A stretch of DNA of 64,000 bases from the NCBI GenBank assembly GCA_963789265.1, contig CAWBKB010000001.1, positions 1,504,001-1,568,000 on the forward strand. The letters are read 5' to 3'. This document shows positions 9,959 through 43,393 of the stretch, one piece after another (the first letter of the stretch is position 1; every line of letters starts with the position of its first letter). The notes beneath the pieces are model-generated. The model was not told the DNA's origin, did not search any database, and saw only the letters and a list, made by a program, of their open reading frames with translations. Source of the stretch: an uncultured delta proteobacterium. Its GTDB lineage: Bacteria > Desulfobacterota > Desulfomonilia > Desulfomonilales > Desulfomonilaceae. The position numbers and the translations under genes are program-made.

Positions 9959-11092
9959 GTGGAATCCAGTAAAACCAATCAACCTACCAGTGGTGTAGTG
10001 GCTCAGCCACAGAAGAAGACGGTGTCGGCAAAAGAGATTGTAGCGGATATTAAATCAGGCATGTCCGACAGATCTCTTGAGCAGAAGTATCAACTCGATC
10101 AGAGCGGTCTCGACAATTTATTTAGCAAGTTGATCTCCGCGAAATTTATCACGGAGGAGGAACTACGTGGGCGAAGGAATGTTGTGAAAGACCAGACGAT
10201 TCCTGTTCCTTCCACTATACGACAAAATGGAACCGTTGCGATTCCTCAATCACAGACTACGACTACGAGCCTTATGTCGTTTGGCTTGCACGATGTGAAA
10301 ATCGTCGCAGTAGGAGCAATCCTGGGTGGAATCAGTGCAGCAGTAGTGACCTCATACTGGGGAACCGCAAAGACTTGGACAAAATGGCTGGGCAAAGCTC
10401 ATGGAGGCACATCTTGGAAATGGATCATAGCATGCGCAATCATCGGAGCAATCCTTGCCTTCTATGTGGACTGGATTCTGAAAAAACGGCGGATAATGAG
10501 GACTTCAAATCAACCACTACCCGTAACAAAGGCTTCCCAATCCGGTAAGGTCAGTGCGGAAGAGATCGAGAAAGCCATTATAATAATGCAGCGCGCCCGC
10601 AGGGACATGTTCGGTATTGCAGGCGACATAGGGATCCTTGGCATAGGCGCAGCAGGAGGCGGGATAGCCGCGACAGCGGTAGCAGCCTTCTTTGGGGCCA
10701 CAAGGATTTGGGGGGTTACCACGGCGGCAAGATGGATGGGATTCAGTTTTCACGGAGGTACACCTTGGAAATGGATCGTAGGGTGTGCAATCGTCGGAGC
10801 AATTCTGTCCTTCTCAGTTAGCAGGCTTGTTAGAAGTGGCGCACAAGGTGACGAACGGAGGAAGAGGAATATAGATGAACTGAAGAGAGAGATCGAGCAA
10901 CGAAGGAAAGCAGCCGAGAAGTCCACGGTGGATAAGGACAAGTTTGATAAGCTCGTACAATCCCTTACGATGCTCCTGAGCAATGGTAAAATGACTCCCG
11001 AAGAATCCGATGGACTCATCAACGGGATTAAGGGCGGCAACATAACCTACGAGTTTGCTTTTGCGTCCGTTGAAGAATACCTCAAAGAATAG
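9959..11092 (+). CDS. Membrane protein with N-terminal helical 'ADIKSG' domain, duplicated WKWI TM module and coiled coil
   Basis: GGGAGG RBS before in-frame GTG at 9959; internal repeat HGGTSWKWIIACAIIGAIL / HGGTPWKWIVGCAIVGAIL. Confidence 0.7.
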   Translation: MESSKTNQPTSGVVAQPQKKTVSAKEIVADIKSGMSDRSLEQKYQLDQSGLDNLFSKLISAKFITEEELRGRRNVVKDQTIPVPSTIRQNGTVAIPQSQTTTTSLMSFGLHDVKIVAVGAILGGISAAVVTSYWGTAKTWTKWLGKAHGGTSWKWIIACAIIGAILAFYVDWILKKRRIMRTSNQPLPVTKASQSGKVSAEEIEKAIIIMQRARRDMFGIAGDIGILGIGAAGGGIAATAVAAFFGATRIWGVTTAARWMGFSFHGGTPWKWIVGCAIVGAILSFSVSRLVRSGAQGDERRKRNIDELKREIEQRRKAAEKSTVDKDKFDKLVQSLTMLLSNGKMTPEESDGLINGIKGGNITYEFAFASVEEYLKE

Positions 11093-11134
11093 CTGCTTGG
11101 AGGGAGAAATAGTCCCCAGAGCGGGCTGAGTCCG

Positions 11135-11311
11135 ATGAAGAAAACCATACCAGTAGAAACGATCACTGCGGATATCAAGAATGGGATCCCGGACGCGGAA
11201 CTTATGAAAAAATACGGACTGCCGGAAGAAAGCTTAAAGAAGGTGTTTGACAGGCTGTTGAGGGCTGCGTGTAATGGGTCTCGTCACGCAGAGGTAGAGG
11301 TTAAAGAATAA
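11135..11311 (+). CDS. Stand-alone small helical domain protein (58 aa)
   Basis: MKKTIPVETITADIKNGIPDAELMKKYGLPEESLKKVFDRLL..., homologous to the N-terminal domain of the preceding gene; below the ORF-track cutoff. Confidence 0.65.
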   Translation: MKKTIPVETITADIKNGIPDAELMKKYGLPEESLKKVFDRLLRAACNGSRHAEVEVKE

Positions 11312-11352
11312 CGCTCCCGATGACCTGAAGGATCTCTGCAACGGTTGCAGAC

Positions 11353-11596
11353 GGGGAGGCAATGAGTCGTAGGAAAGCAATGATGGAACCCGGCGTTCAG
11401 GCAGACCCTCCAAAGGGGTCCCGTGAGAACATCACTCAGTAACCACTCTGAGCTACGGCAGGTGCGTTGGCTCTCTGGGGTATCCTCGACAGCCCTGGAA
11501 AAAGAAGGCAGCTCTCGTGGAGCCTGGACCTCTCCCAGTGAGGGTCGCGAGAGTAACGCCTCCGGTTCATTCCGGCGGGGTTGTTCGGGGGATACC
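11353..11596 (+). ncRNA. Putative structured non-coding element, family A copy 1
   Basis: Conserved blocks shared with 18487-18737; long-range complementarities and variable hairpins. Confidence 0.6.
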
Positions 11597-12046
11597 AAAA
11601 CTACTTCTAATGATGCTATTGGGCATCAACCAGAGTTTACAGGATTCTCTTTGATGAACTTCTGACGTAAGGGAATATATAGTTGGAGTCCTTTCAACTC
11701 TTCAGCATCGGCCAGCCAGTTTCGGGGCAGCCAATAAGCCTATTTACGGTTGATAGCCTTTTTCTGGGCTTTCCTTGGCTCCGTGCGCCTTCAGGAGTCG
11801 TACTATCTCGACTTCACCCCTTTTCGAAGCCTCCGCCACCGCCGTCTCACCCTTGGCATTGACATCCGCTCCCTTGTGTAGATTTTCAAATTGTATGGAC
11901 TGAAAAGGGGTGATTTTCTCAGAATAGATTGACCTGGGGAGAAAAAATATCAGAATAGATGGACGGGATGAATGAATAGGGCGGTGGCTTGACGGAGCTA
12001 CCGCCCGAAGCATGTACGGGCCATAAGGCCCCTCAAAGGTATTGTC

Positions 12047-12493
12047 ATGATAGTCTTCCTGTCTGTCTCCATCAAGGAGATTGTGGAGAGGGGGCGGGAT
12101 TTTCCCTGGCCCCGGCCCAAGAATTGCCCTCGGTGCGGCGGTACTCGGTTATGGGGTCATGGATTTGTCACTGCCATTTTCGATGGTTTTGTTACCCATG
12201 TTTTGCTCCGACGCTGGCGTTGTCCGGAATGCCGCTGCGTGGTGAGGATTCGGCCCAGCGGATATTTCCCTCGATTTCAGGCTTCTGTTGACACTATTCG
12301 TTCGTCCATTGCCTTTAGGCTGGCAAATGACAGATGGCCTGGAGATATTCCACGGTCCAGGCAAGGGCATTGGCTGAGATCTCTTAAAAGGAGAGTGAAT
12401 GCCTTGCTTGGCCAGAGATGGAGCAGACGTCTGCTGGAGGGTTTCGATGAGTTGATGCTCAAAAATGAGCCCCCGGTTTGCCGTCGCATCTAA
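12047..12493 (+). CDS. IS accessory zinc-ribbon protein (DUF6431-like)
   Basis: CPRC..WGHG..RWRCPEC. Confidence 0.85.
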   Translation: MIVFLSVSIKEIVERGRDFPWPRPKNCPRCGGTRLWGHGFVTAIFDGFVTHVLLRRWRCPECRCVVRIRPSGYFPRFQASVDTIRSSIAFRLANDRWPGDIPRSRQGHWLRSLKRRVNALLGQRWSRRLLEGFDELMLKNEPPVCRRI

Positions 12494-12598
12494 TCTGCGA
12501 AGCCCGTCGATCCGGTTGCACCCTACCGAAGAGTGCCGTTGTGCTGGGATTGTGTTCGGGGTACCACCCCAGGCAACATACCTAAGGAGGGAGACCCG

Positions 12599-13901
12599 AT
12601 GGACGAAGATGAGAAAAAGCGGATTGCGGCCTTCAGGTTTGGCGTGATTCACGACCTGGTGGGGAATGTGGAGCTGGAACCCGGTGAGCAGGAGCGCCTG
12701 ATACGGGAGAAGTGCGACCGGAAATGGGTGATACCCTTTTCACAGAAGACTCGTATTACCCGCAGCACAATTTTGCGCTGGGTGAAGCTCTACAAGGAGT
12801 CCGGCGGCAAATTGGAGGTGTTGGCCAACCGAGGGAGGTCTGATAACGGCAAGAGTCGCGCCATAGACGAAGAGACCAGTTTGGCTTTGATCCGTTTGAG
12901 GTATGAGCTTCCCAAGGCTACCATAGCCCGTCTCTTGCGTGAGATGAACAAGCGACAACTGGTCTCTCCGGGGCTAGTCCTTACTAGATCAACAGTACAC
13001 CGCTTCTTGAGCAGCAATGGTCTCATGAAGCAGAATCAGATCACGGCCGAAGACCGCAGACGGTTTGAAGCTGAACTGCCCAATGATCTGTGGCAGTCGG
13101 ATTGCATGCACGGGCCAAAAGTGGATCATCAGGGGAAGAATCGAAAGACCTATCTCATTGCTTTCATAGACGACCATTCCAGGTTGGTTCCTCATGCCGA
13201 GTTTTACCTCTCCGAGTCACTCCCGTCGTTTCTGAAAGCCCTTGAAGAAGCCCTCTTGACCAGAGGGCTACCCAGAAAAATCTATACGGACAATGGAAGT
13301 GCCTTTCGCTCCCATCATCTGGAACACGTCACGGCAAGCCTTGGGATTGCTCTCATCCATGCAAGGCCGTACAAACCACAGGGAAAGGGAAAAATAGAGA
13401 GGTTCTTCCGAACCGTGAGGGGGGACTTTCTGTCTTGCTTCAAAGGAAATACGCTTGCCGAGCTGAATCAAGCCCTGTTCTTCTGGTTGAATGACATCTA
13501 TCATCAGAGAATACACTCCTCAACAGGGCAAACCCCCTTTGCTCGGTTCACTTCAAGAATGGAATGCCTGAGAGAAGCCCCTCACAATCTCAAAGACTAT
13601 TTTCGCAAGACCGTGCGGCGCAGAGTAGCAAAGGACAGGACCATAAGCCTGGACGGAAGGATCTATGAAGCACCTGTCTCACTCATCGGGCGTCAGGTGG
13701 CCCTTCTGTACCACGAGGGGGAACCGGAGCGAGTAGAGATCATGCTCGGCGGGGTCTCCTACGGTATGGCCACCCCCGTAAACCTCCACGTCAATTGCCG
13801 GGTGAAGCGGGATAAGGTACAGCAGCATTAGACTGGAAGGCACGGAACAATCCGAAAAATACCAGAGTGGCGGCCTCTGGGGGAAGAGAGGCCGTAAATG
13901 A
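12599..13901 (+). CDS. DDE transposase (rve core + Mu-type C-terminus); apparent +1 frameshift at ~13816
   Basis: WQSD, FIDDHSR, YTDNGS, GKIERFF motifs; as given it stops at 13831; removing one G extends it to TGA 13899-13901, overlapping the ATPase ATG. Confidence 0.9.
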
Positions 13902-14707
13902 GTACCAATTACCGCTCATTTTTCGGTATGACTCGTGAGGCTTTCCCAACGGATATAAGCGTCAAGGACATCATGGAGACTCAAGATATCAAGGCTATCA
14001 AAGAGCGCTTTGATTATACGGTCAGGCTGGGGGCCATTGCGACCATCACCGGTGAGGTGGGATCGGGAAAGTCTACAGCGCTCCGGTACGTTATCTCGAA
14101 GCTTCACCCCTCAGAATACAAAACCCTCTGGATTACTGCCTGTTCAGGCTCGATCCTGGAGTTTTATCGGCTCTTTCTCGCTGAATTCGGCGTACACATG
14201 GCAGGCTCGTCAAAAGCGGTGATGGTACGCCTCATAAAAAAGGCAATACGGGAAATCATCCTTGAGAAGAAGATGAAAATCGTGCTGGTCGTCGATGAGG
14301 CGGGCCTATTGCGCCTGGAGGTCCTTGCCGAACTCCACACCATCACCCAATTCGAGGCTGACTCAAAACCCTGGCTCCCCATCATCCTTACGGGGAGGTC
14401 GAATCTCATCGACAAACTCATGTATCAAACATCCCTGCCGCTCGCTTCAAGGGGCGTCGCACGAACCCACATGGAACCTGTAGAAAGACAAGAGATGGAG
14501 CATTACCTACTCCATCACCTTGCTCTCACCGGCGTCAAATCCAACCTCTTCGATGATCCGGCCATCACAGCCATCCATCAAGGCTCAGGAGGAATATTCA
14601 GAAAGGCAAATCATCTGGCAAGAGGGGCTCTCATCGCAGCGGCCGACAGCCAATCTACCCTCGTTACCGCCGACCACGTCAGGCTGGCTGCCACGGAAAT
14701 CTTTTAA
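13898..14707 (+). CDS. ExeA-like AAA ATPase (transposition helper)
   Basis: Walker A GEVGSGKS, Walker B LVVDEA. Confidence 0.92.
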   Translation: MSTNYRSFFGMTREAFPTDISVKDIMETQDIKAIKERFDYTVRLGAIATITGEVGSGKSTALRYVISKLHPSEYKTLWITACSGSILEFYRLFLAEFGVHMAGSSKAVMVRLIKKAIREIILEKKMKIVLVVDEAGLLRLEVLAELHTITQFEADSKPWLPIILTGRSNLIDKLMYQTSLPLASRGVARTHMEPVERQEMEHYLLHHLALTGVKSNLFDDPAITAIHQGSGGIFRKANHLARGALIAAADSQSTLVTADHVRLAATEIF

Positions 14708-16097
14708 GCAACCAAAACCGGGCCGGACCACCAGGCCCGGTCCAGACAATCTGAAAAAAACAGGAGGATTATCCCAAATAATCAGAGAAAATCGGTCAAT
14801 CTAATGTGGGAAACAACACCTTGTCCAACAGAACCTTCACTGGTTCCACGTTACGACTACGTGAGGCCCACATCAGTGCTGTCCCACCATCCCTATCCTT
14901 GGCATTGACGTCCGCTCCCTTGTCCAACAGGGTCTTCAGCACCTCAACGTGACCAAACCACGAGGCATACATCAGTGCTGTCCTGCCAAAGAAACCGATG
15001 GCATTGACACCCGCTCCCTTGTCCAACAGAACCTTCACTGTCTCCACGCGACCAGATAATGAAGCCTCCATCAGTAATGTCAACTCACTCGGTGTCATCG
15101 CATTGACATCCCCACCTTCAGCCAAGAGACCTTCCACAGCAGCGGTGTCGCCTCTTCTGACAGCTTGATCTAAAAGAAAGTAGCTATCACGCTTGGCTTC
15201 ATGCTCTGAACAGAAACAGACTTCGATTTCAGCATGAGGATCACTCGGTTTGAAATCACTTATCTCGTATTTCACTTGTTTAGGGGAAATAAGTGTTTGA
15301 GTGCTTGTCGCCGGTTCTCCACGTACTCGAAAATTCATTTTGCTAGCCTGATTTCCATCTATAATAAAAACAGCCTTTCCTATCGTACCGTTCCAAAACG
15401 AACCTGTTCCGTAAATATACCTCGCGCAAATACCCTCGTATTTCGCCTTGTATCGCACGCGCGTCACCGTAGCAGAATGACCTGAAAACGTCACTTTCTT
15501 TGCCATCCAGTGATCGCCCGGAACCCCCGTGGGTTCGCCGTCTTCGTCTGAAAGAAACTTGTGGACGGAATCCCACAACCCCGGAAGATTACCTTTCTCA
15601 CTTACTTCTGTGAATTCTACTTCTTGGTCGTTAACCCAAGTTTCAAATTTAATAAATTGAAAGGTCTTACCAAAAACTTTCGGAAAACCAACCCACTCCG
15701 TGGTGGTTTCCCCAGCGTTAAAGAAGTGAAAGACAGCATCGACGATATAGCTATCGTACAGCAACTTAATAGTTACTTCTTCGGATTCCATTCTAATCGA
15801 TTGGTGGTGACCTTTTGGCGACGGACCTCCCCCAACTAATCCCATCGGCATCTCATTTGTTTCTCCCAGACTAGTGAAGAAAAGAGATGCCCCGCTCGCC
15901 AGGCACAAAAGAAGTACAAATAATCTCATGGGTATCCCCCGTAAAACCCATTGCCTGCTCAGTTTTAGTGTGAGCAGTCCCCCGTGACCGGACCCAGGCA
16001 AGAACCGGCGTGACGTTGATGAAAAAGTCCATTTTAGGCTGTTGCTAAATATACCTAGCCCTCCGCTGCTGCGTCAACCATTTCTTCCACCGCATCG

Positions 16098-16290
16098 TCA
16101 CCCGAACACCGTTCGGTAGTATCAAGCCAAAGCGAAGGCTGAAGCCACATGGACCTGCCACCTCCTACCGTGATATGCGACCTTCGCTCCGACTTTGATC
16201 AGACGCTTGACGAGCCATTTTAATGGCCGTTTGACTTCTTCGCCCGTCAAGTAGAATTGCCGGAGCATGTGCAGGAAGATCAGGAAACGT
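16098..16290 (-). pseudogene. C-terminal remnant of a transposase (IS1380-like)
   Basis: FLIFLHMLRQFYL..WLVKRLIKVGAKVAYHGRRWQVHVASAFALA*YYRTVFG; internal TGA. Confidence 0.6.
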
Positions 16291-16320
16291 AAACGTGTCC
16301 ACTCACGGTCACAGGCTAAC

Positions 16321-16540
16321 CAATGATTCTTACCTGTCCTTCGAAGGGACACCTAGCCTCAAGGCGTCACCGCATGTTGTCCTTCCGTACTCGTCATCTC
16401 GTTTGTCAGCTCCCCCAGCGGATATTCTCGACAAAATTGACCTCCTGAGAACCACGTAGGGCGACGATCTGGGTCAGAGCAAGGGGTAAGGCAGGGGGCA
16501 ACAGAGGTTGCGGGAAATCGCATCTGAGTGGCTCGTCTGC
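16321..16540 (+). ncRNA. Putative structured non-coding element, family B copy 1
   Basis: Homologous to 18772-18990 with conserved stems and swapped hairpin sequences; no shared reading frame. Confidence 0.55.
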
Positions 16541-16779
16541 TCGACCGAACCCGGTCCCTTTCTGCTTGACGGTTTTCACAGTCCCTTATACTGTCCGAAT
16601 TGTTCCAGCAGGCATCAAGCCGGTGCCATAGATATTCCGGGTATCAGGATTGTGCCTCCCGAGAAGCGCCGCGGGAGGAGAGCAGCTTACATTCTTGGAA
16701 TCCCTAGAAATGGAGGCTCAAAACGTCAAGTATAAGACACAGAGCCATACAAGGCATCAAAGCGGGGGACGAATTTTCG

Positions 16780-17205
16780 GTGTCACGCACTTTCACGGAA
16801 CAGGACGTGATGCAATTTGCGGACTTGTCCCGAGATTACAACCCCGTCCATCTGGAGGATCGATTCGCCAAGGCAAAGAAGTTCGGTGGAAGGATCTGTC
16901 ACGGTCTTCTCGTGGGGAGCATGCTTACCGAAATCGGTGGACAGATAGGCGTCCTCGCCTCTCATATGGACTTCGTGTTCAAGAAGCCGGTCTATTTTGG
17001 AGATACTGTGACCTGCTGTTGGACCTTCACTGAGATTGACCAGAAAGGTCGCGCCAAAGCACAGGTAGTGTTTCAAAATCAAGACGAGATCGTCGTACTC
17101 ACTGCCACTGTCAAAGGAATTATACCGGGCGTGCCGGAAAGAGCAATCTTGAAGGCTATGGTCGAAGAAGGAGATCCAACAAACAAGCTTTCCGGGAAGT
17201 TGTAA
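16780..17205 (+). CDS. MaoC-family dehydratase
   Basis: FADLSRDYNPVH...ICHGLL...FKKPVYFGD hot-dog fold motif. Confidence 0.88.
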   Translation: MSRTFTEQDVMQFADLSRDYNPVHLEDRFAKAKKFGGRICHGLLVGSMLTEIGGQIGVLASHMDFVFKKPVYFGDTVTCCWTFTEIDQKGRAKAQVVFQNQDEIVVLTATVKGIIPGVPERAILKAMVEEGDPTNKLSGKL

Positions 17206-17229
17206 GCCAGTGGGTTGATGTCACTAAGA

Positions 17230-17267
17230 TAACGCCTCCGCTAGTCGGCGGGGTTGTCGGGGGATAC
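17230..17267 (+). repeat. Partial (3' module) copy of family A element
   Basis: TAACGCCTCCG-ctagt-CGGCGGGGTTGTCGGGGGATAC matches 11554-11595 and 18695-18735. Confidence 0.7.
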
Positions 17268-17340
17268 GAAGACGATAGAATAATCACCATCGAAATCCCC
17301 AATCCTGCAGCCGAGCTATCGCTTCGTTCAAAACGCCTTT

Positions 17341-18405
17341 CTAATCTTCGAGGCGTGGCACTGTGTCTTCGGCAATGAGATCGTCAAGAATAGCAATCCC
17401 TTTGATCGGGTGTTCGTTGAGATGCGAGATCATGGGAAAGATGTGTTTCTGAGCAAACTCCAGAGCGAGCAGAACATGGCTGAAGAACCACGTCTTGTCT
17501 TGGGGCTCCCTGTCAGCCACATTCATGCACTCTAAGATTTGCTGCCATTTACTTCGCCGCTTCGACTTCTTACCTGCGAAAAGGCTCCTAGCCTGCCCGT
17601 GAGCAACTGCTGAGCGGATGTCATAAAGGTGTCCTAAGAGCGTTGTCATTTGCGTGAAATTGAGTTTTCGAGCCGTCTGATCAAAACCCCACAGATCAGC
17701 ATCCTTCACGAATTTGGTGTAATAGGCTGAGCCAATCAGTCTGAACTGCACAGAGATTTCTGCCGAGGCTCCTTGAACAAACAGACTTTCAAGACCGGCA
17801 ATCATGAGAACGACGGCTTCGCAGAGGTCCAAGTAATCGTAATAACGATATTTCCCAGAAAAACCGTTTATAGTCCAAAAAGACTTCTGGAGGAGCACGA
17901 TGCTCCCCGCCAAGGATTCGTTGCTGTGAAAGAGATCAAACCAGGCTTCAACAGAGGAATTAGAAGGAATCCAGTCCTGCTGATCGGGTCGCCGATTAAG
18001 CGAGAAACCGCTGTGAGAAGATGATTCCGTGAAAATCTCTTCGTCAGTGGCTTGGCCCTCTTTTTTTGGCTGGCCCAGCATGAAAAGCAGCTTCAGCTCA
18101 ATATCTTTTGGCAGATTCTTAGGATACGAGAAATAGAATATTTTCCGCGGACGACGATCATTCACGAACAAGGCAAGCAAAATGTTTTCCAAATCCTGGA
18201 CTGCTCGGTAAATCTCGGCGTCTTGAAAGTTGAGCCGAATTTGTCGGTTAAAAATCATGGAGAAGGAGCGGTCATCGACGCACCAATCGGCGAATCTGAA
18301 CGAGGAATATTTTGCAGTAGTGTAAGAGCCAGGCCCCACTACTGCCGAAAGCATAAAGGTTTCTTGCTCAATTTGCTGCCGCTTCAATGTTCCTACCTTC
18401 AACAT
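17341..18405 (-). CDS. HEPN-domain protein (ApeA-like C-terminal HEPN)
   Basis: IAGLESLF and LYDIRSAVAHG (RxxxxH) motifs. Confidence 0.75.
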   Translation of the reverse strand: MLKVGTLKRQQIEQETFMLSAVVGPGSYTTAKYSSFRFADWCVDDRSFSMIFNRQIRLNFQDAEIYRAVQDLENILLALFVNDRRPRKIFYFSYPKNLPKDIELKLLFMLGQPKKEGQATDEEIFTESSSHSGFSLNRRPDQQDWIPSNSSVEAWFDLFHSNESLAGSIVLLQKSFWTINGFSGKYRYYDYLDLCEAVVLMIAGLESLFVQGASAEISVQFRLIGSAYYTKFVKDADLWGFDQTARKLNFTQMTTLLGHLYDIRSAVAHGQARSLFAGKKSKRRSKWQQILECMNVADREPQDKTWFFSHVLLALEFAQKHIFPMISHLNEHPIKGIAILDDLIAEDTVPRLED

Positions 18406-18486
18406 CTCGGTACTGTCTTGGTCGTTGTGTTGGATTGGAGCTATAGATACGACATGGAAAGAAACTTCGCAATATGATGAAGCGAA

Positions 18487-18737
18487 AGGGAGGCGATTCT
18501 GCCCAGGAAGGAAATCACGGAACCCTCAAGTTCAGGCAACCGGCAACGGTGAGTGCAAACGTGACCGGGTACACGGGTACTGCGAAGGACCCACCCCCGG
18601 CTGGGACTTGACATCGCCTCTCAAGGGTATCTCCGACAGCCTTGGAAAAAAAAGGCCCCTCCGCGAAGCCTGAACCTCGAAAGAGTCGCGAGAGTAATGC
18701 CTCCGACGAAAATCGGCGGGGTTGTTGAGGGATACCC
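18487..18737 (+). ncRNA. Putative structured non-coding element, family A copy 2
   Basis: Same conserved blocks as 11353-11596; GCAA and GAAA tetraloop hairpins in the variable positions. Confidence 0.6.
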
Positions 18738-18771
18738 AAGTTCACTTGCCCTTCATGACTCACGGGTTTAC

Positions 18772-18990
18772 CCAATGATTTCTACCTGTCCTTCGATGGG
18801 ACACCTAGCCTCAACTCTCGGCACTTTGTCCTTCCGTACTCATCATCTCGTTTCTCAGCTCTCCCAGCGGATATTCTCAAAAGATGGACGCCCTGAGAAC
18901 AACGTAGAGCCACGATCTGGGGTCGGTGAAGGGTAAGGGTCGGGAGAAAAAGCACGACCCGCAAATCGCATCTGAGAGGCTCGTGGCTGC
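18772..18990 (+). ncRNA. Putative structured non-coding element, family B copy 2
   Basis: Homologous to 16321-16540. Confidence 0.55.
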
Positions 18991-19292
18991 CGCGCTTCAG
19001 GAGCGTATTGGAGAGGCATCGTGTCGCTACCGGAAGTGGGCGGAGGGACATTTCGGGTAGAATATCTCCCTTCGCTTTGTCATGCGGGTCCGCTTAATAA
19101 CCATCCTGAAAAAATATTCACCTTATTTCATAAGGGGATTTTGTATATTTCGACTCGCTGCAAGTTGCATTCTAAACATGTTGACTTACATTCTAGTCTA
19201 CCAACCTTGTCTCTCAGATAAGACGAACCTGCCAAACATCTCTGTCACGGAAAACGTCTTTCTTACATCAACACTCAATGGAGGTGTGCAAC

Positions 19293-19472
19293 ATGATACC
19301 GGAATACCCAGCATCCATAACAATAAGGGTTCCACATGACATCCGCTCACAGCTCGAATCCATGTCTCTGAGGGAGGATAAGCCCATCTCTCGCATAGTC
19401 AGGTCAGTTATAGCAGAGGGGCTGAAACAGAAAATGGCTCCTGACAATGACTTCATCGAACTCGAAGCGTAA
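19293..19472 (+). CDS. Ribbon-helix-helix (CopG/Arc-like) protein
   Basis: GGAGGT RBS; SITIRVPHDIRSQLESMS...ISRIVRSVIAEGL. Confidence 0.75.
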   Translation: MIPEYPASITIRVPHDIRSQLESMSLREDKPISRIVRSVIAEGLKQKMAPDNDFIELEA

Positions 19473-19666: not shown

Positions 19667-20821
19667 ATGCTAACAGAAAGACACAAAACAGAGCCAGATT
19701 TACCCCCTCAAGACCTCGTAACCGCTGCCTTGGACTACGCCCGCAAAGGCTTCCGAATCTTTCCCCTTCATTCAGTTGACGATCAGGGACATTGCTCCTG
19801 TGGAAAACAAGACTGCGGCAGCCCCGGCAAACACCCGCGGAACTGGAACGGTCTCAAGGGAGCCACCACCGACGAGACCCAAATCCTCAAGTGGTGGACG
19901 AAGTTCCCTGATGCGAACATAGGTATCCGCACCGGCAAGGGTCTCTTCGTCCTAGACGTGGATGAGGACGAAGGCGAAGATTCTCTCCGTGACCTTGAAG
20001 AGAAGTGTGGAAAACTTCCAGAGACCTGGGAATGCCTCACCGGACGTGGACGCCATATCTATCTGCTATCACCCACCGACAAATACATAAAGAGTTCAAG
20101 AAGCCTGATCGGAACCAAACTGGACGTCCGCTGTGAGGGAGGCTACGTAGTTGCGCCTCCTTCCCGGCATTACTTTGGAAACCGCTATGAATGGGAATGT
20201 ACGTGTCATTCAGAAGATATTCCTATGGCGGAGGCTCCTGAATGGATGATTCGACTCGCGTGTACGAAGAAGAGATCGAAATCAAATCAGAGGTGGGGCA
20301 GTACCTTCAAACCAGTCCTTCACATCGGGGAGCGGAACGAGACCCTGTTCAAAGAGGCATGCCATCTCAGAGACCTGGGCTTATCCAGGGAAAGGGTAGA
20401 GCATTATACACGCCTCCGCAATCGGTGTGATTGCCAGCCTCCTCTCAAAGACACGGAAGTGGAGACCATACTTCGTCAGGCATACAGATATTCCAAACGC
20501 CCCTGTCGAAAAGGCCGATTGTCTCCGGGTTCCGAGAGAGTTTTCCGTTACCTCGTGGAAAGATCATTGCATAGGGGCAACTGCTTGCTCAGCAAGGAAG
20601 AGATAGCGATTGCTGTCGGTTTGAAGAAGAGGCAGGTCTTCACCTGTATTCGCCAGTTGGAAAGACAAGGGCTATTACGGGTTCAGGAGCATAACGGTAT
20701 GGAAAGTCTATATTTTCCCCAGACCCATGCAGTACCCATGCAGTCCTTACATATAGGGGCAAGGGAAAGTACAGATTCTGAGTCCCCTATACAAGAGACA
20801 CCCCTGAGAGTCATGAAATAA
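19667..20821 (+). CDS. Bifunctional DNA primase/polymerase (Prim-Pol) with PriCT-like and C-terminal wHTH domains
   Basis: ALDYARKGFRIFPL, CSCG..C..PGKHP, ANIGIRTG, VLDVD, GRHIY, GGYVVAPPS, GERNETLF. Confidence 0.9.
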   Translation: MLTERHKTEPDLPPQDLVTAALDYARKGFRIFPLHSVDDQGHCSCGKQDCGSPGKHPRNWNGLKGATTDETQILKWWTKFPDANIGIRTGKGLFVLDVDEDEGEDSLRDLEEKCGKLPETWECLTGRGRHIYLLSPTDKYIKSSRSLIGTKLDVRCEGGYVVAPPSRHYFGNRYEWECTCHSEDIPMAEAPEWMIRLACTKKRSKSNQRWGSTFKPVLHIGERNETLFKEACHLRDLGLSRERVEHYTRLRNRCDCQPPLKDTEVETILRQAYRYSKRPCRKGRLSPGSERVFRYLVERSLHRGNCLLSKEEIAIAVGLKKRQVFTCIRQLERQGLLRVQEHNGMESLYFPQTHAVPMQSLHIGARESTDSESPIQETPLRVMK

Positions 20822-27207: not shown

Positions 27208-27888
27208 TTAGGCATCGCCCAAATCTTCGTCGCTCAGCCCGTAACGTTTTTTTACTGATTCAATCTCTAAGCGTCTGAATTCTAGTCCATCCTCCAGGAG
27301 GGCCACAAGAGCCTCTCCATCGTACGGGCCAATAATAGGGTCATGATAACGATACTCGCTTTGGCAGTAGTAACCTTCGATGGTGTTCATATACTTGCGC
27401 ATGAGGACGAGTACATCTTCAATCATCTGTCGCGATACGCCGGGCAGGGGGTCTGCCCCAGGCTGAATTGAGGCGTTGTCGAGATGCGCTATGCGCTTGT
27501 TACGATGAGTCCGAATTGCCCCACATTTACCAGGCTTGTCCGAGCTGTTGGGGACACCACAAAGCTCAACCAATATCTCGCTGAGTTTGGAGGAAAGCCC
27601 TTGGTCGCCGAGTTTCTCCACTTGTTCCTGCAATCGCAAGAGTGAAAGGTTCTCATTCCCGCCGATGGTAGCACGATCAATGAGTTTCCCCAGCGAGAGC
27701 TGGATCTCATCTATCAGTACCCCATGAATAAAGAAAAAAAACGTAGAGGCACAGCTATTTAACAATCTCACTCGCGCATCGGAGTGTGCAAAGAGCTGGC
27801 GGTAGATTTTCCACCGGGCGTGCAGGGACGTGATTTCATTCTTCAGTTGGTCGAATACGACTTTTATGGATTCAGGAACATCGTTCAT
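27208..27888 (-). CDS. HEPN protein (AbiU2-like)
   Basis: LGKLID...NLSL..L and RNKRIAH (RxxxxH). Confidence 0.75.
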   Translation of the reverse strand: MNDVPESIKVVFDQLKNEITSLHARWKIYRQLFAHSDARVRLLNSCASTFFFFIHGVLIDEIQLSLGKLIDRATIGGNENLSLLRLQEQVEKLGDQGLSSKLSEILVELCGVPNSSDKPGKCGAIRTHRNKRIAHLDNASIQPGADPLPGVSRQMIEDVLVLMRKYMNTIEGYYCQSEYRYHDPIIGPYDGEALVALLEDGLEFRRLEIESVKKRYGLSDEDLGDA

Positions 27889-41972: not shown

Positions 41973-42329
41973 ATGAGTTCCAACGTAATCCTGTTACCAA
42001 GGGTGATTCGACGCAGGGATGCAGCAGCATATCTGGGCATGGACAAGAATCGATTTGATCGAGAAGTCCGACCCTCCCTGACCGAATTCCCTATTGGGGA
42101 TCAGGGCGTTGGATTCGATAGGCTTGACTTGGACAACTGGTATGAAGAGTATAAGGCTCGCAACGGTCGTCCCGGCAAGCAGAAAGGAGCAAATAAGCTA
42201 TGGGACGAAAGAAAGTCGCCGGTCTCATCAACCGTAAAGGGATATGGCACCTCGACAAAGTTGTCCGAGGAAGAAGAGTTTGCGAAAGTACTGGCGAAAG
42301 TAACATCGAGAAAGCGGAAGAGTATCTAG
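41973..42329 (+). CDS. Excisionase-like HTH protein
   Basis: IRRRDAAAYLGMDKNRF...FDRLDLDNW; GGGAG RBS; overlaps the integrase 5' end by 130 nt. Confidence 0.8.
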   Translation: MSSNVILLPRVIRRRDAAAYLGMDKNRFDREVRPSLTEFPIGDQGVGFDRLDLDNWYEEYKARNGRPGKQKGANKLWDERKSPVSSTVKGYGTSTKLSEEEEFAKVLAKVTSRKRKSI

Positions 42330-43297
42330 CACGTAGAATTGAGGCGATCAGGCAAGCAGAGATTTACGGCGTGAGGCCGAAGAGAAGTTTTCGCCAGGCT
42401 GCAACTAAGTATTTGAAAGAGGCCACGAAGGCCAGTATAGGTCGAGATGCAGACCTACTGAAAGTATTGGAACCATTCATCGGGGACCTTCCCCTAGACT
42501 CCATCCACATGGGGAAGCTGCAGGCGTTTATTGTGAACCGTGAGGCTGCTGGGTGGAAAAAACGGACTATCAACTATGGCTTACAGGTGGTCAGGCACAT
42601 CCTCAACTTGGCTGTGAACGAATGGATAGACGAGTACGGTATGACTTGGTTGTCTCATACACGAAAGGTTAAGCTCCTCAAGGAAGACGACAAGAAGGAG
42701 CCGTACCCTCTGTCCTGGCAGGAGCAGGTACGCCTCTTTGACGAGTTGCCGCCTTATTTGGCGAAGATGGCACTATTCAAGGTCAATACGGGATGCCGGG
42801 ACCAAGAGGTTTGCAACCTCTTGTGGGAATGGGAAGTGCCCGTGCCTGAACTGAACACCTCTGTCTTTATCATCCCTGCCCACCTGGTTAAGAATCGGCA
42901 GGATCGACTGGTGGTGTTAAACCGGGCCGCTAAGGCAGTGGTTGAGGAAATGCGCGGAGTCCATCCTACACACGTGTTTTCCTACAAAGGTAAGCCCCTT
43001 CAAAGGATGTACAACCGGGCCTGGAGGGAAGGGCGTAAGCGTGCCGGACTCCCCCATATCCGGGTTCACGACTTGAAACATACCTTCGGGCGCAGGCTCC
43101 GATCTATCGGAGTGTCTTTTGAGGATCGGCAGGATTTGTTAGGCCACAAGTCCAGCAGGATCACAACCCACTATTCTCGGGCCGAACTGGCGAATCTCAT
43201 CTCCGCCTCGAACAGAGTGTGTGACAACGAGTCCCGCAAAAGTCCCGCACTGGTTATCTTGAAAAAGAAACCCCGCCTTGCCGTCGTCAACAACTAG
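42200..43297 (+). CDS. int: Phage-type tyrosine integrase
   Basis: TGCRDQE, KN, HDLKHTFG, LLGH, TTHY catalytic motifs; adjacent to a tRNA. Confidence 0.95.
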   Translation: MGRKKVAGLINRKGIWHLDKVVRGRRVCESTGESNIEKAEEYLARRIEAIRQAEIYGVRPKRSFRQAATKYLKEATKASIGRDADLLKVLEPFIGDLPLDSIHMGKLQAFIVNREAAGWKKRTINYGLQVVRHILNLAVNEWIDEYGMTWLSHTRKVKLLKEDDKKEPYPLSWQEQVRLFDELPPYLAKMALFKVNTGCRDQEVCNLLWEWEVPVPELNTSVFIIPAHLVKNRQDRLVVLNRAAKAVVEEMRGVHPTHVFSYKGKPLQRMYNRAWREGRKRAGLPHIRVHDLKHTFGRRLRSIGVSFEDRQDLLGHKSSRITTHYSRAELANLISASNRVCDNESRKSPALVILKKKPRLAVVNN

Positions 43298-43317
43298 GCG
43301 GGATTCTTAATGATTCG

Positions 43318-43393
<76 letters not shown>

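Follow-up and report, generated by a model that had tools for sequence, protein, structure and literature searches.

A probable multicopy structured RNA of the Desulfomonilaceae that is new to Rfam

Two full copies and one 3′ fragment of a folded RNA element lie in a 64,000-nt stretch of DNA (the window) from an uncultured delta proteobacterium of the Desulfomonilaceae. The element is real, previously uncatalogued and new to Rfam, measures ~255 nt, and was found only in this one bacterial family. With moderate confidence, and on the strength of sequence comparison, we read it as a multicopy, gene-like module that probably specifies a plus-strand structured non-coding RNA and travels with mobile DNA.

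The first-pass annotation of the window had not recognised the family, and a check against Rfam 15 agrees with it: no family reaches its gathering score on any copy, the only passes in the whole window being two tRNAs. When E values up to 10 were admitted over positions 11000-19200, six weak matches appeared, none of which overlaps a copy, and no Rfam ribozyme or intron model matches the element. Among the full-text matches listed, no publication was found that joins Desulfomonile or Desulfomonilaceae with an RNA motif, ncRNA, repeat or riboswitch.

Copies in the window and their relatives

The copies were placed with two covariance models, one per domain (R2 for the 5′ domain and R1 for the 3′ domain). 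The features concerned are all on the plus strand:

11135..11311, plus strand: p58, a conserved 58-aa ORF directly 5′ of copy A
11312..11352, plus strand: leader with the palindrome TCTGCAACGGTTGCAGAC (11335-11352)
11350-11601, plus strand: copy A, whole, by covariance-model placement
11350..11478, plus strand: copy A, 5′ domain with helices H1-H7 and strand GTTCAGGC at 11395-11402 (R2, 94 bits, E 2.3e-22)
11475..11601, plus strand: copy A, 3′ domain with closing helix H8 (11479-11497 with 11576-11596), A-rich junction (11498-11508) and GCCTGGAC (11522-11529) (R1, 114.7 bits, E 2.6e-25)
17230..17268, plus strand: 3′ fragment comprising the junction, hairpin H12 and the 3′ strand of H8
18484-18741, plus strand: copy B, whole, by covariance-model placement
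18484..18625, plus strand: copy B, 5′ domain with H1 (18488-18497 with 18613-18622) and GTTCAGGC at 18530-18537 (R2, 118.1 bits, E 9e-29)
18622..18741, plus strand: copy B, 3′ domain with H8 (18626-18644 with 18717-18736) and GCCTGAAC at 18668-18675 (R1, 122.6 bits, E 3.1e-27)
18738..19081, plus strand: stretch X, a conserved non-coding stretch after copy B

The two full copies and the 3′ partial that the first-pass annotation had reported are borne out with these boundaries, and the conserved blocks lie where it had placed them. Searched with a profile of copies A and B, the same genome yielded four further full-length copies (E 5.6e-45, 5.6e-45, 3.9e-42 and 5.5e-30); the profile's values for A and B, 2.4e-78 and 1.4e-77, are self-matches. 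With three mismatches or fewer allowed, the window holds two occurrences of a 23-nt 3′ motif and 100 shuffles hold none. The likeness of the copies is far beyond chance.

Within the Desulfomonilaceae the element was found in 12 of 70 genomes and 6 of 26 genera; none turned up in the 52 sister-family genomes searched or in 150 others from the rest of the phylum. One pattern match in viral contigs proved not to be the element. Carrier genomes hold 1-13 copies, which are clustered at spacings of 1-20 kb, with adjacent copies co-oriented. Many copies are truncated, which fits selfish or decaying DNA too. An excess of 5′-truncated copies is not claimed, because the wide searches used the 3′ domain and are biased toward such copies; the split was ~5 to 3 in unbiased searches.

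Fold, covariation and long-range pairing

Forty-two distinct full-length copies were gathered from relatives and metagenomes, and their plus-strand consensus comprises two multi-helix domains with 76 nested pairs. H1 (GGGAGGCGAT/ATCGCCTCYC; as RNA, GGGAGGCGAU/AUCGCCUCYC) closes the 5′ domain, which holds a three-way junction (H2, H3 and H6), an arm of H4 and H5 and a hairpin, H7. In the 3′ domain, the 19 pairs of H8 enclose an H9/H10/H11 stack and the H12 hairpin. GNRA-type loops occur on three hairpins, and several unpaired stretches, including GGAACC and GAAAAAGAAGG, are near-invariant.

Selection on this fold, as proposed from the window's own copies, is supported by covariation in three alignments, two of them fitted to the structure model and the third made with MAFFT only. 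Across 44 distinct sequences of the 5′ domain, 89.0% of cells are paired and both sides have changed in 26 of 36 pairs, with a covariation score of 0.354 versus 0.158 in shuffles and at most 0.078 with slid partners. The 3′ domain (53 distinct sequences) is 91.0% paired, with both sides changed in 28 of 40 pairs and a score of 0.194 versus 0.148 in shuffles and at most 0.091 with slid partners. The MAFFT-only alignment of 41 full-length copies, scored for nested pairs plus the pseudoknot, gave 89.1% paired cells and 0.239 versus 0.154 and at most 0.087, respectively. None of 500 shuffles reached the observed score in any of the three, a count that overstates independence because all the sequences are relatives from a single family. 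Pairs kept by compensatory change above controls, the generic sign of a structured ncRNA, are what these alignments contain; the expectation that hairpins persist while their sequence is replaced is confirmed in H6, two pairs of which each occur as three Watson-Crick types across copies. Absence of a shared reading frame, which the first-pass annotation had noted, is suggested by indels that are not multiples of three and by the pair-wise substitutions.

The plus strand had been favoured from the start, and two measures agree. Single-sequence folding z-scores are −3.43 and −2.17 on the plus strand and −0.48 and −0.28 on the minus strand, and the consensus pairs include 304 G-U versus 146 A-C. 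The single-sequence folds give the same helices, H1, H2, H3 and H6 being visible in the minimum-free-energy fold of copy B. RNA is accordingly favoured, although not proven, over single-stranded DNA as the molecule that would fold. DNA also tolerates G-T pairs and GNRA-like loops, a point for the view, taken up below, that the fold acts in DNA; an excess of G-U over A-C of about 2 to 1 speaks against that view.

Four long-range pairings had been proposed, several of them crossing, and two of the four give way to local helices. Compensatory change is absent from GGAGGC/GCCTCC but present in GGGAGGCGAT/ATCGCCTCYC; CTCTC/GAGAG is 66% paired, not above shuffles, and GAGAG pairs locally with CTCTCACGA. 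The pairing GGTATC..GACAGCC/GGTTGT..GATACC stands, as the 19-pair helix that closes the 3′ domain. Since local helices better explain the first and third pairings, a single crossing pairing remains, GUUCAGGC/GCCUGAAC, in which 8-nt strands of the 5′ and 3′ domains are complementary to each other in nearly all copies. It is kept as an inter-domain pseudoknot in 96.6% of cells, versus at most 50% when the strands are slid, but barely covaries: both sides changed in one of eight pairs, no more than in shuffles (256/500). This candidate pseudoknot draws on conserved complementarity, through which the two domains would be docked as a single compact body, in the manner of large ribozymes and riboswitches.

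Boundaries, neighbouring genes and the p58 leader

Homology between loci either stops ~5 nt or less from the RNA 3′ end or begins at the RNA 5′ end. Divergence within ~5 nt of the 3′ end is seen at three glyoxalase-linked loci and in one further pair of loci (L105/L128); other copies instead carry a conserved 50-nt tail after the RNA. Where a glyoxalase-gene homologue lacks the RNA, the part in common is the coding region only. In an empty-site comparison, the flanks of one copy fall on different contigs in relatives, and an insertion junction could not be made out. Inspection by eye showed neither inverted repeats at the ends (AAAGGGAGGC... and ...GATACCAAAT) nor a target-site duplication in the flanks, so the element does not have the termini of a MITE.

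The surroundings in the window are variable and mobile-looking, with IS21 genes, an integrase adjoining a tRNA and a Prim-Pol gene, much as the first-pass proposal of a mobile island had it; no repeat of the tRNA 3′ end marks an island boundary within the window. PADLOC defence models applied to 20 window ORFs gave ankyrin-repeat matches only. No transposase gene adjoins a copy among the copies examined, nor does any of the five reverse transcriptase matches in the genome.

These features bear on the possibility that the element is non-autonomous mobile DNA (MITE-like or derived from an IS200/IS605-type element) or a single-strand replication signal, its fold acting in single-stranded DNA for a transposase, recombinase or primase. 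Its multicopy, patchy, clustered and often truncated occurrence would suit such an element, as would the sharp ends, the flanking of a subset of copies by a palindrome suited to protein binding, the Prim-Pol gene downstream of copy B and the six Y1-transposase matches in the genome. We nonetheless regard this explanation as unlikely, though not negligible. Besides the lack of inverted ends, target duplications and adjacent transposases, the nearest Y1 match is ~4 kb from a copy and none adjoins one, the genome's single Prim-Pol gene is near just one of ~7 full copies, and about a dozen helices with invariant unpaired stretches far exceed what transposon ends are known to need.

The genes adjoining different copies are unrelated. 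Most often the gene upstream has the same orientation as the element and ends ~40-65 nt before it (p58, glyoxalase, a zinc-ribbon-like ORF recognised by eye, and DUF1003 are examples), and the downstream gene is diverse and mostly convergent; some copies have a divergent upstream gene or a co-oriented downstream gene instead. A riboswitch or 5′ leader would be expected to precede a recurring class of co-oriented downstream gene, and the downstream genes here share no relationship. No conserved promoter was found across copies; a sigma-70-like site before copy B is a 9/12 match from a scan whose site count is no higher than chance. On our reading of the element as an RNA module, it would usually be transcribed with, or just after, the co-oriented upstream gene.

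The same layout could reflect a cis-acting 3′ untranslated element (an mRNA stabiliser, processing site or terminator module) behind accessory genes, since the upstream gene commonly ends close by in the same orientation and the downstream gene is often convergent. This we consider improbable: known stabilisers and terminators are far simpler folds, H8 has no U-tract after it, no feature unites the upstream genes, and the orientation exceptions do not fit. An antisense-strand terminator was likewise dropped, as the fragments begin right after the A-tract, which is why they have no U-tract.

Stretch X, which follows copy B, shares 82% identity over 585 nt with DNA 3′ of the RNA at another locus (L153), and its relatives also follow the RNA at other loci. 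Their alignment has no supported consensus fold (covariation term +1.78).

On the 5′ side, the neighbour of copy A is p58. It resembles DUF433 weakly (E 0.0035, below the cut-off), has no PDB match in a fold search at E ≤ 0.001, and belongs to a set of 15 proteins of 53-88 aa, the window's own included, retrieved from 5.8 billion proteins. A p58 homologue lies directly 5′ of the RNA at eight loci, and remnants precede two more copies. Full-length p58 gave six matches in the 70 genomes, all in RNA-bearing genomes, and in five of the six the RNA 5′ domain comes immediately after the gene. Within the completeness of the assemblies, full-length p58 is absent from 8 of the 12 RNA-bearing genomes; the RNA therefore needs no p58 in cis. 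The palindrome in the leader of copy A is exact on both strands, a related leader lies 5′ of the RNA in ~10 further copies, and in some copies a palindrome stands next to the element, at one end or at both.

The oldest recognisable form of the module would then be a gene for a helix-turn-helix-like 58-aa protein, a palindromic leader and the RNA, with the RNA spreading alongside mobile or variable DNA by duplication and by recombination that breaks at its ends. As to function, our best guess, held tentatively, is that the RNA may belong to a small protein-RNA module carried by a mobile element, as its RNA half; p58 would bind either the palindrome or the RNA. A bolder option, which we think rather unlikely, is a new class of catalytic or protein-partnered RNA able to spread by its own action, for instance through recombination at its exact ends that the RNA guides or catalyses; p58 and the palindrome would be what remains of the autonomous unit.

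Significance and comparison with known systems

The elaborate, conserved fold suggests a sophisticated role. Bacterial large RNAs of such conserved architecture have repeatedly proved to be ribozymes, riboswitches or guide RNAs, as with HEARO, for long an orphan and now understood as the IscB omega RNA. The present element comes with ~12 helices supported by covariation, a candidate pseudoknot, a clearly bounded taxonomic range and a putative protein partner, so that structure, processing, binding and mobility are directly testable. Should it turn out to be nothing more than a selfish repeat, its elaboration would be unusual all the same, and it would serve well to mark the variable regions of these genomes.

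A guide-RNA scaffold for an RNA-guided nuclease or recombinase encoded elsewhere, comparable to IscB/TnpB omega RNAs and IS110 bridge RNAs and with most copies orphans, would account for several features together: the pseudoknot, the many copies, a length of ~250 nt, the sharp 3′ boundary and the co-oriented ORF that ends shortly before the RNA. Such a layout resembles that of TnpB omega RNAs, and copy homology that ends at the RNA 3′ end (to ~5 nt), as for TnpB omega RNAs and IS200/IS605 derivatives, is found here. We nevertheless judge this explanation very improbable. The genome has no TnpB zinc-ribbon domain (the control search was positive in 8 of 14 genomes), its Y1-transposase matches are never adjacent to a copy, and none of its five IS110 transposase matches lies anywhere near a copy, leaving no DEDD (IS110-type) gene of the kind that accompanies a bridge RNA. 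No HEARO or other Rfam model matches the copies at E values up to 10, and where a variable guide would be expected, just outside either end, a conserved leader or tail is often found. A search for the RRXRR domain gave no match in the genome, its control being equally silent.

HEARO, the omega RNA of IscB and IsrB, is alike in being large, pseudoknotted, multicopy and borne on mobile DNA with many ORF-less copies. The element differs in lacking a variable guide-like flank and an adjacent nuclease ORF; the ORF directly 3′ on the same strand that marks IscB/IsrB omega RNAs is replaced by diverse, often convergent ones. Its helix layout also differs, with two closed domains and a candidate kissing pairing between them.

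Orphan RNAs of the ROOL, GOLLD and raiA type also combine complex conserved folds and GNRA loops with frequent placement in mobile or variable regions. The element is much shorter than ROOL or GOLLD, and differs from all three in being confined to one family, in its copy number of up to 13 per genome, in its many truncated copies and in the small protein gene that accompanies a subset. The Bacillus cereus bcr1 and ERIC repeats are likewise intergenic, multicopy, oriented to neighbouring genes and marked by compensatory changes, but they form one or a few simple hairpins with terminal inverted repeats or target duplications, in contrast to ~12 helices, a long-range pairing and ends that are not inverted. 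Integron attC sites are imperfect hairpins of 57-141 bp with RYYYAAC/GTTRRRY cores, in dense arrays beside an integron integrase; the element is ~255 nt and multi-branched, its ends do not match those cores, and its copies are kilobases apart. Finally, single-strand origins and primase sites of plasmids and phages are also orientation-dependent, modular, folded, 150-300 nt long and near replication genes, whereas the element has one copy near a primase gene and the others among ordinary genes, with a wobble bias that favours RNA.

Copies, boundaries, and gene neighborhoods

Both full copies of the element and the 3′ fragment reported by the first-pass annotation are present in the window, with the conserved blocks in the order that it described.

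Copies of the element in the window
11353–11596, +, copy A, full
18487–18737, +, copy B, full
17230–17267, 3′ fragment, partial

The genome carrying the window (6.06 Mb, 9 contigs; window at C1:1504001–1568000) was searched with a profile made from copies A and B, which re-found both together with four further full-length copies (one within a 6.6-kb duplication), a weaker full-length match on contig C6, and five fragments at E < 1e-10; the window fragment was matched at E 0.04. The duplicated 6.6-kb segment, with its one RNA copy, lies on two contigs (G000 C1:1470058 and C5:419025) at 99.4% identity. Outside this duplication, likeness between the genome's copies is limited to the element itself, and an all-against-all comparison of their flanking ORFs revealed no neighbor in common. 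Genes near element copies are diverse and ordinary (histidine kinase, NicO, sulfatase, CBAH, EamA, DUF4424, glyoxalase, and others); with exceptions, the gene upstream usually runs in the same direction as the element, and that downstream is often convergent.

The element is sharply bounded. A glyoxalase gene and the RNA are common to three loci at 87–89% identity, and these loci diverge within ~5 nt of the RNA 3′ end, as do L105 and L128; similarity between L008 and L022 starts at the RNA 5′ end. In other copies the RNA is followed by a conserved ~50-nt tail. L105 and L128 are very similar in upstream ORF, leader, and 3′ domain and differ in the compensated helix variants of their 5′ domains, suggesting that copies recombine or that the 5′ domain changes fast. 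At the metagenomic locus L131 (1–1232), the two domains are separated by ~660 nt containing a 136-aa ORF and bounded by the direct repeat TGCATTGCCT; this stretch appears to have entered the element at a later time.

Fold and covariation

The collection of homologs and covariation analysis suggested by the first-pass annotation bore out a conserved fold. The 5′ half (helices H1–H7) and 3′ half (H8–H12, with H8 as closing helix) were modeled as separate covariance models; since the resulting alignments are model-fitted, a MAFFT-only alignment served as a control, with base pairs projected onto its columns. All but one of the 42 different full-length copies entered this control; L089 was omitted because its 3′ domain aligns poorly. 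Covariation exceeded that of shuffles in all three alignments.

Covariation of the proposed fold (distinct sequences; cells paired; pairs changed on both sides; score; shuffles, with number reaching the score; slid partners)
5′ domain, model-fitted; 44; 89.0%; 26/36; 0.354; 0.158, 0/500; ≤ 0.078
3′ domain, model-fitted; 53; 91.0%; 28/40; 0.194; 0.148, 0/500; ≤ 0.091
Full length, MAFFT only; 41; 89.1%; 36/84, pseudoknot included; 0.239; 0.154, 0/500; ≤ 0.087

The four long pairings originally proposed fared differently. The fourth corresponds to H8, a well-supported helix of 19 pairs. The second, GUUCAGGC/GCCUGAAC, connects the 5′ and 3′ domains and is complementary in 96.6% of cells, versus ≤ 50% when slid; covariation is hardly present and cannot prove this pairing, because its strands hardly vary. 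The first, GGAGGC/GCCUCC, is paired in 84% of cells with zero compensation; when its 5′ strand changes from G to A, AUCGCCUCYC, an alternative partner, co-changes in 4/10 and 3/6 cases and GCCUCC in 0. The third performs no better than shuffles; its GAGAG strand belongs to the local helix H10, in which 8 of 9 pairs have changed on both sides. Scanning every pair of alignment columns without bias yielded no additional strong long-range pair.

Unaided minimum-free-energy folding recovered H1, H2, H6, H8, H9, H10, and H12 in both window copies, and H3 and H11 as well in copy B. The proposed preference for the + strand is upheld by pair counts (304 G–U versus 146 A–C) and by folding z-scores of the window copies (−3.43 and −2.17 on the + strand versus −0.48 and −0.28 on the − strand). 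The main rival to an RNA, a fold that functions in single-stranded DNA, we consider unlikely.

p58 and other features of the window

A candidate partner of the RNA is p58, a 58-aa ORF (window 11135–11311) that stops 42 nt ahead of copy A. Homologues with 48–78% identity occupy the equivalent position at L035, L127, L132, L052, L111, L171, and on contig C6 of the same genome, and two further element copies are preceded by C-terminal remnants of p58. All six full-length matches among 70 Desulfomonilaceae genomes fall in RNA-bearing genomes, five of them with the RNA 5′ domain directly afterwards; 8 of the 12 RNA-bearing genomes have no full-length p58. Searching a large protein set retrieved 15 proteins of similar length, including the window's own. 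The N-terminal 44 residues constitute a domain common in the family, matched in 48/70 genomes. Genome-wide, the related domain of ~44 aa heads many larger proteins, for example at window 10013–10141; at E ≤ 1e-8 it reaches as many as 27 matches in a single genome and is absent from two genera (0/8 and 0/14 genomes). The AlphaFold model of p58 (pLDDT 80) predicts a three-helix unit with two short terminal strands, for which a PDB search gave no significant match. The leader between p58 and the RNA holds the palindrome TCTGCAAC-S-GTTGCAGAC; such a leader precedes about ten copies, and the palindrome recurs ~50 nt past the RNA at several loci.

Other features of the window
12533–14707, IS21-like pair (integrase-core transposase and AAA ATPase), ankyrin-repeat gene fragments on its flanks
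16317–16536 and 18738–19081, X, a second repeated non-coding stretch
19082–19339, +, 85-aa ORF, no Pfam or NCBIfam match
27208–27888, −, AbiU2-type HEPN protein gene, same variable region
42200–43393, tyrosine integrase gene with adjoining tRNA gene

The stretch that follows copy A is probably interrupted by the IS21-like pair. The two window copies of X are 80% alike across 221 nt, and relatives follow the RNA at L153, L132, L017, L133, and L145, past the 50-nt tail and palindrome; X has conserved blocks and no supported consensus fold. Between X and the Prim-Pol gene (19667–20821), the 85-aa ORF, which by eye looks like a small DNA-binding protein, sits in a 585-nt stretch 82% identical to L153. 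An integrase gene adjoining a tRNA gene typically marks an integrated island; the window was searched for a second occurrence of the tRNA 3′ end, and none was found.

Distribution and comparison with known systems

BLAST with copy B matched 6 of 41 related genomes. The 3′-domain covariance model identified the element in 12 of 70 family genomes and 6 of 26 genera, the window's own genome counted, with 1–13 matches per genome and neighboring copies on one contig in the same orientation. The order comprises these same 70 genomes; neither the 52 genomes from the class's only other family nor 150 further genomes sampled from the phylum gave a match. A strict 3′-domain sequence pattern was also run on 185,579 species genomes and on metagenomes and viral contigs. 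The model confirmed 17 of 42 species-genome loci, titled Desulfomonilaceae bacterium (10), Desulfomonile tiedjei MAG (1), uncultured delta proteobacterium (5), and uncultured Syntrophobacteraceae bacterium (1); chance matches in unrelated phyla account for the remaining 25. Metagenomes contributed 57 loci, 25 of them confirmed, and the single matching viral contig does not carry the element.

The genome encodes no TnpB, and no reverse transcriptase or transposase of the Y1 or IS110 type was found beside an element copy; its single Prim-Pol gene adjoins copy B and no other copy. Neither terminal inverted repeats nor target duplications were visible when ends and flanks were inspected by eye, and the element's size and ends do not fit an integron attC site. 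Comparison with Rfam 15, likewise suggested at the outset, matched no family to the element: gathering scores returned two tRNAs only across the window, and none of six weak matches within 11000–19200 (E up to 10) overlapped a copy. Taken together, the results favor a new family of structured RNA, with somewhat better than even probability for this RNA reading.
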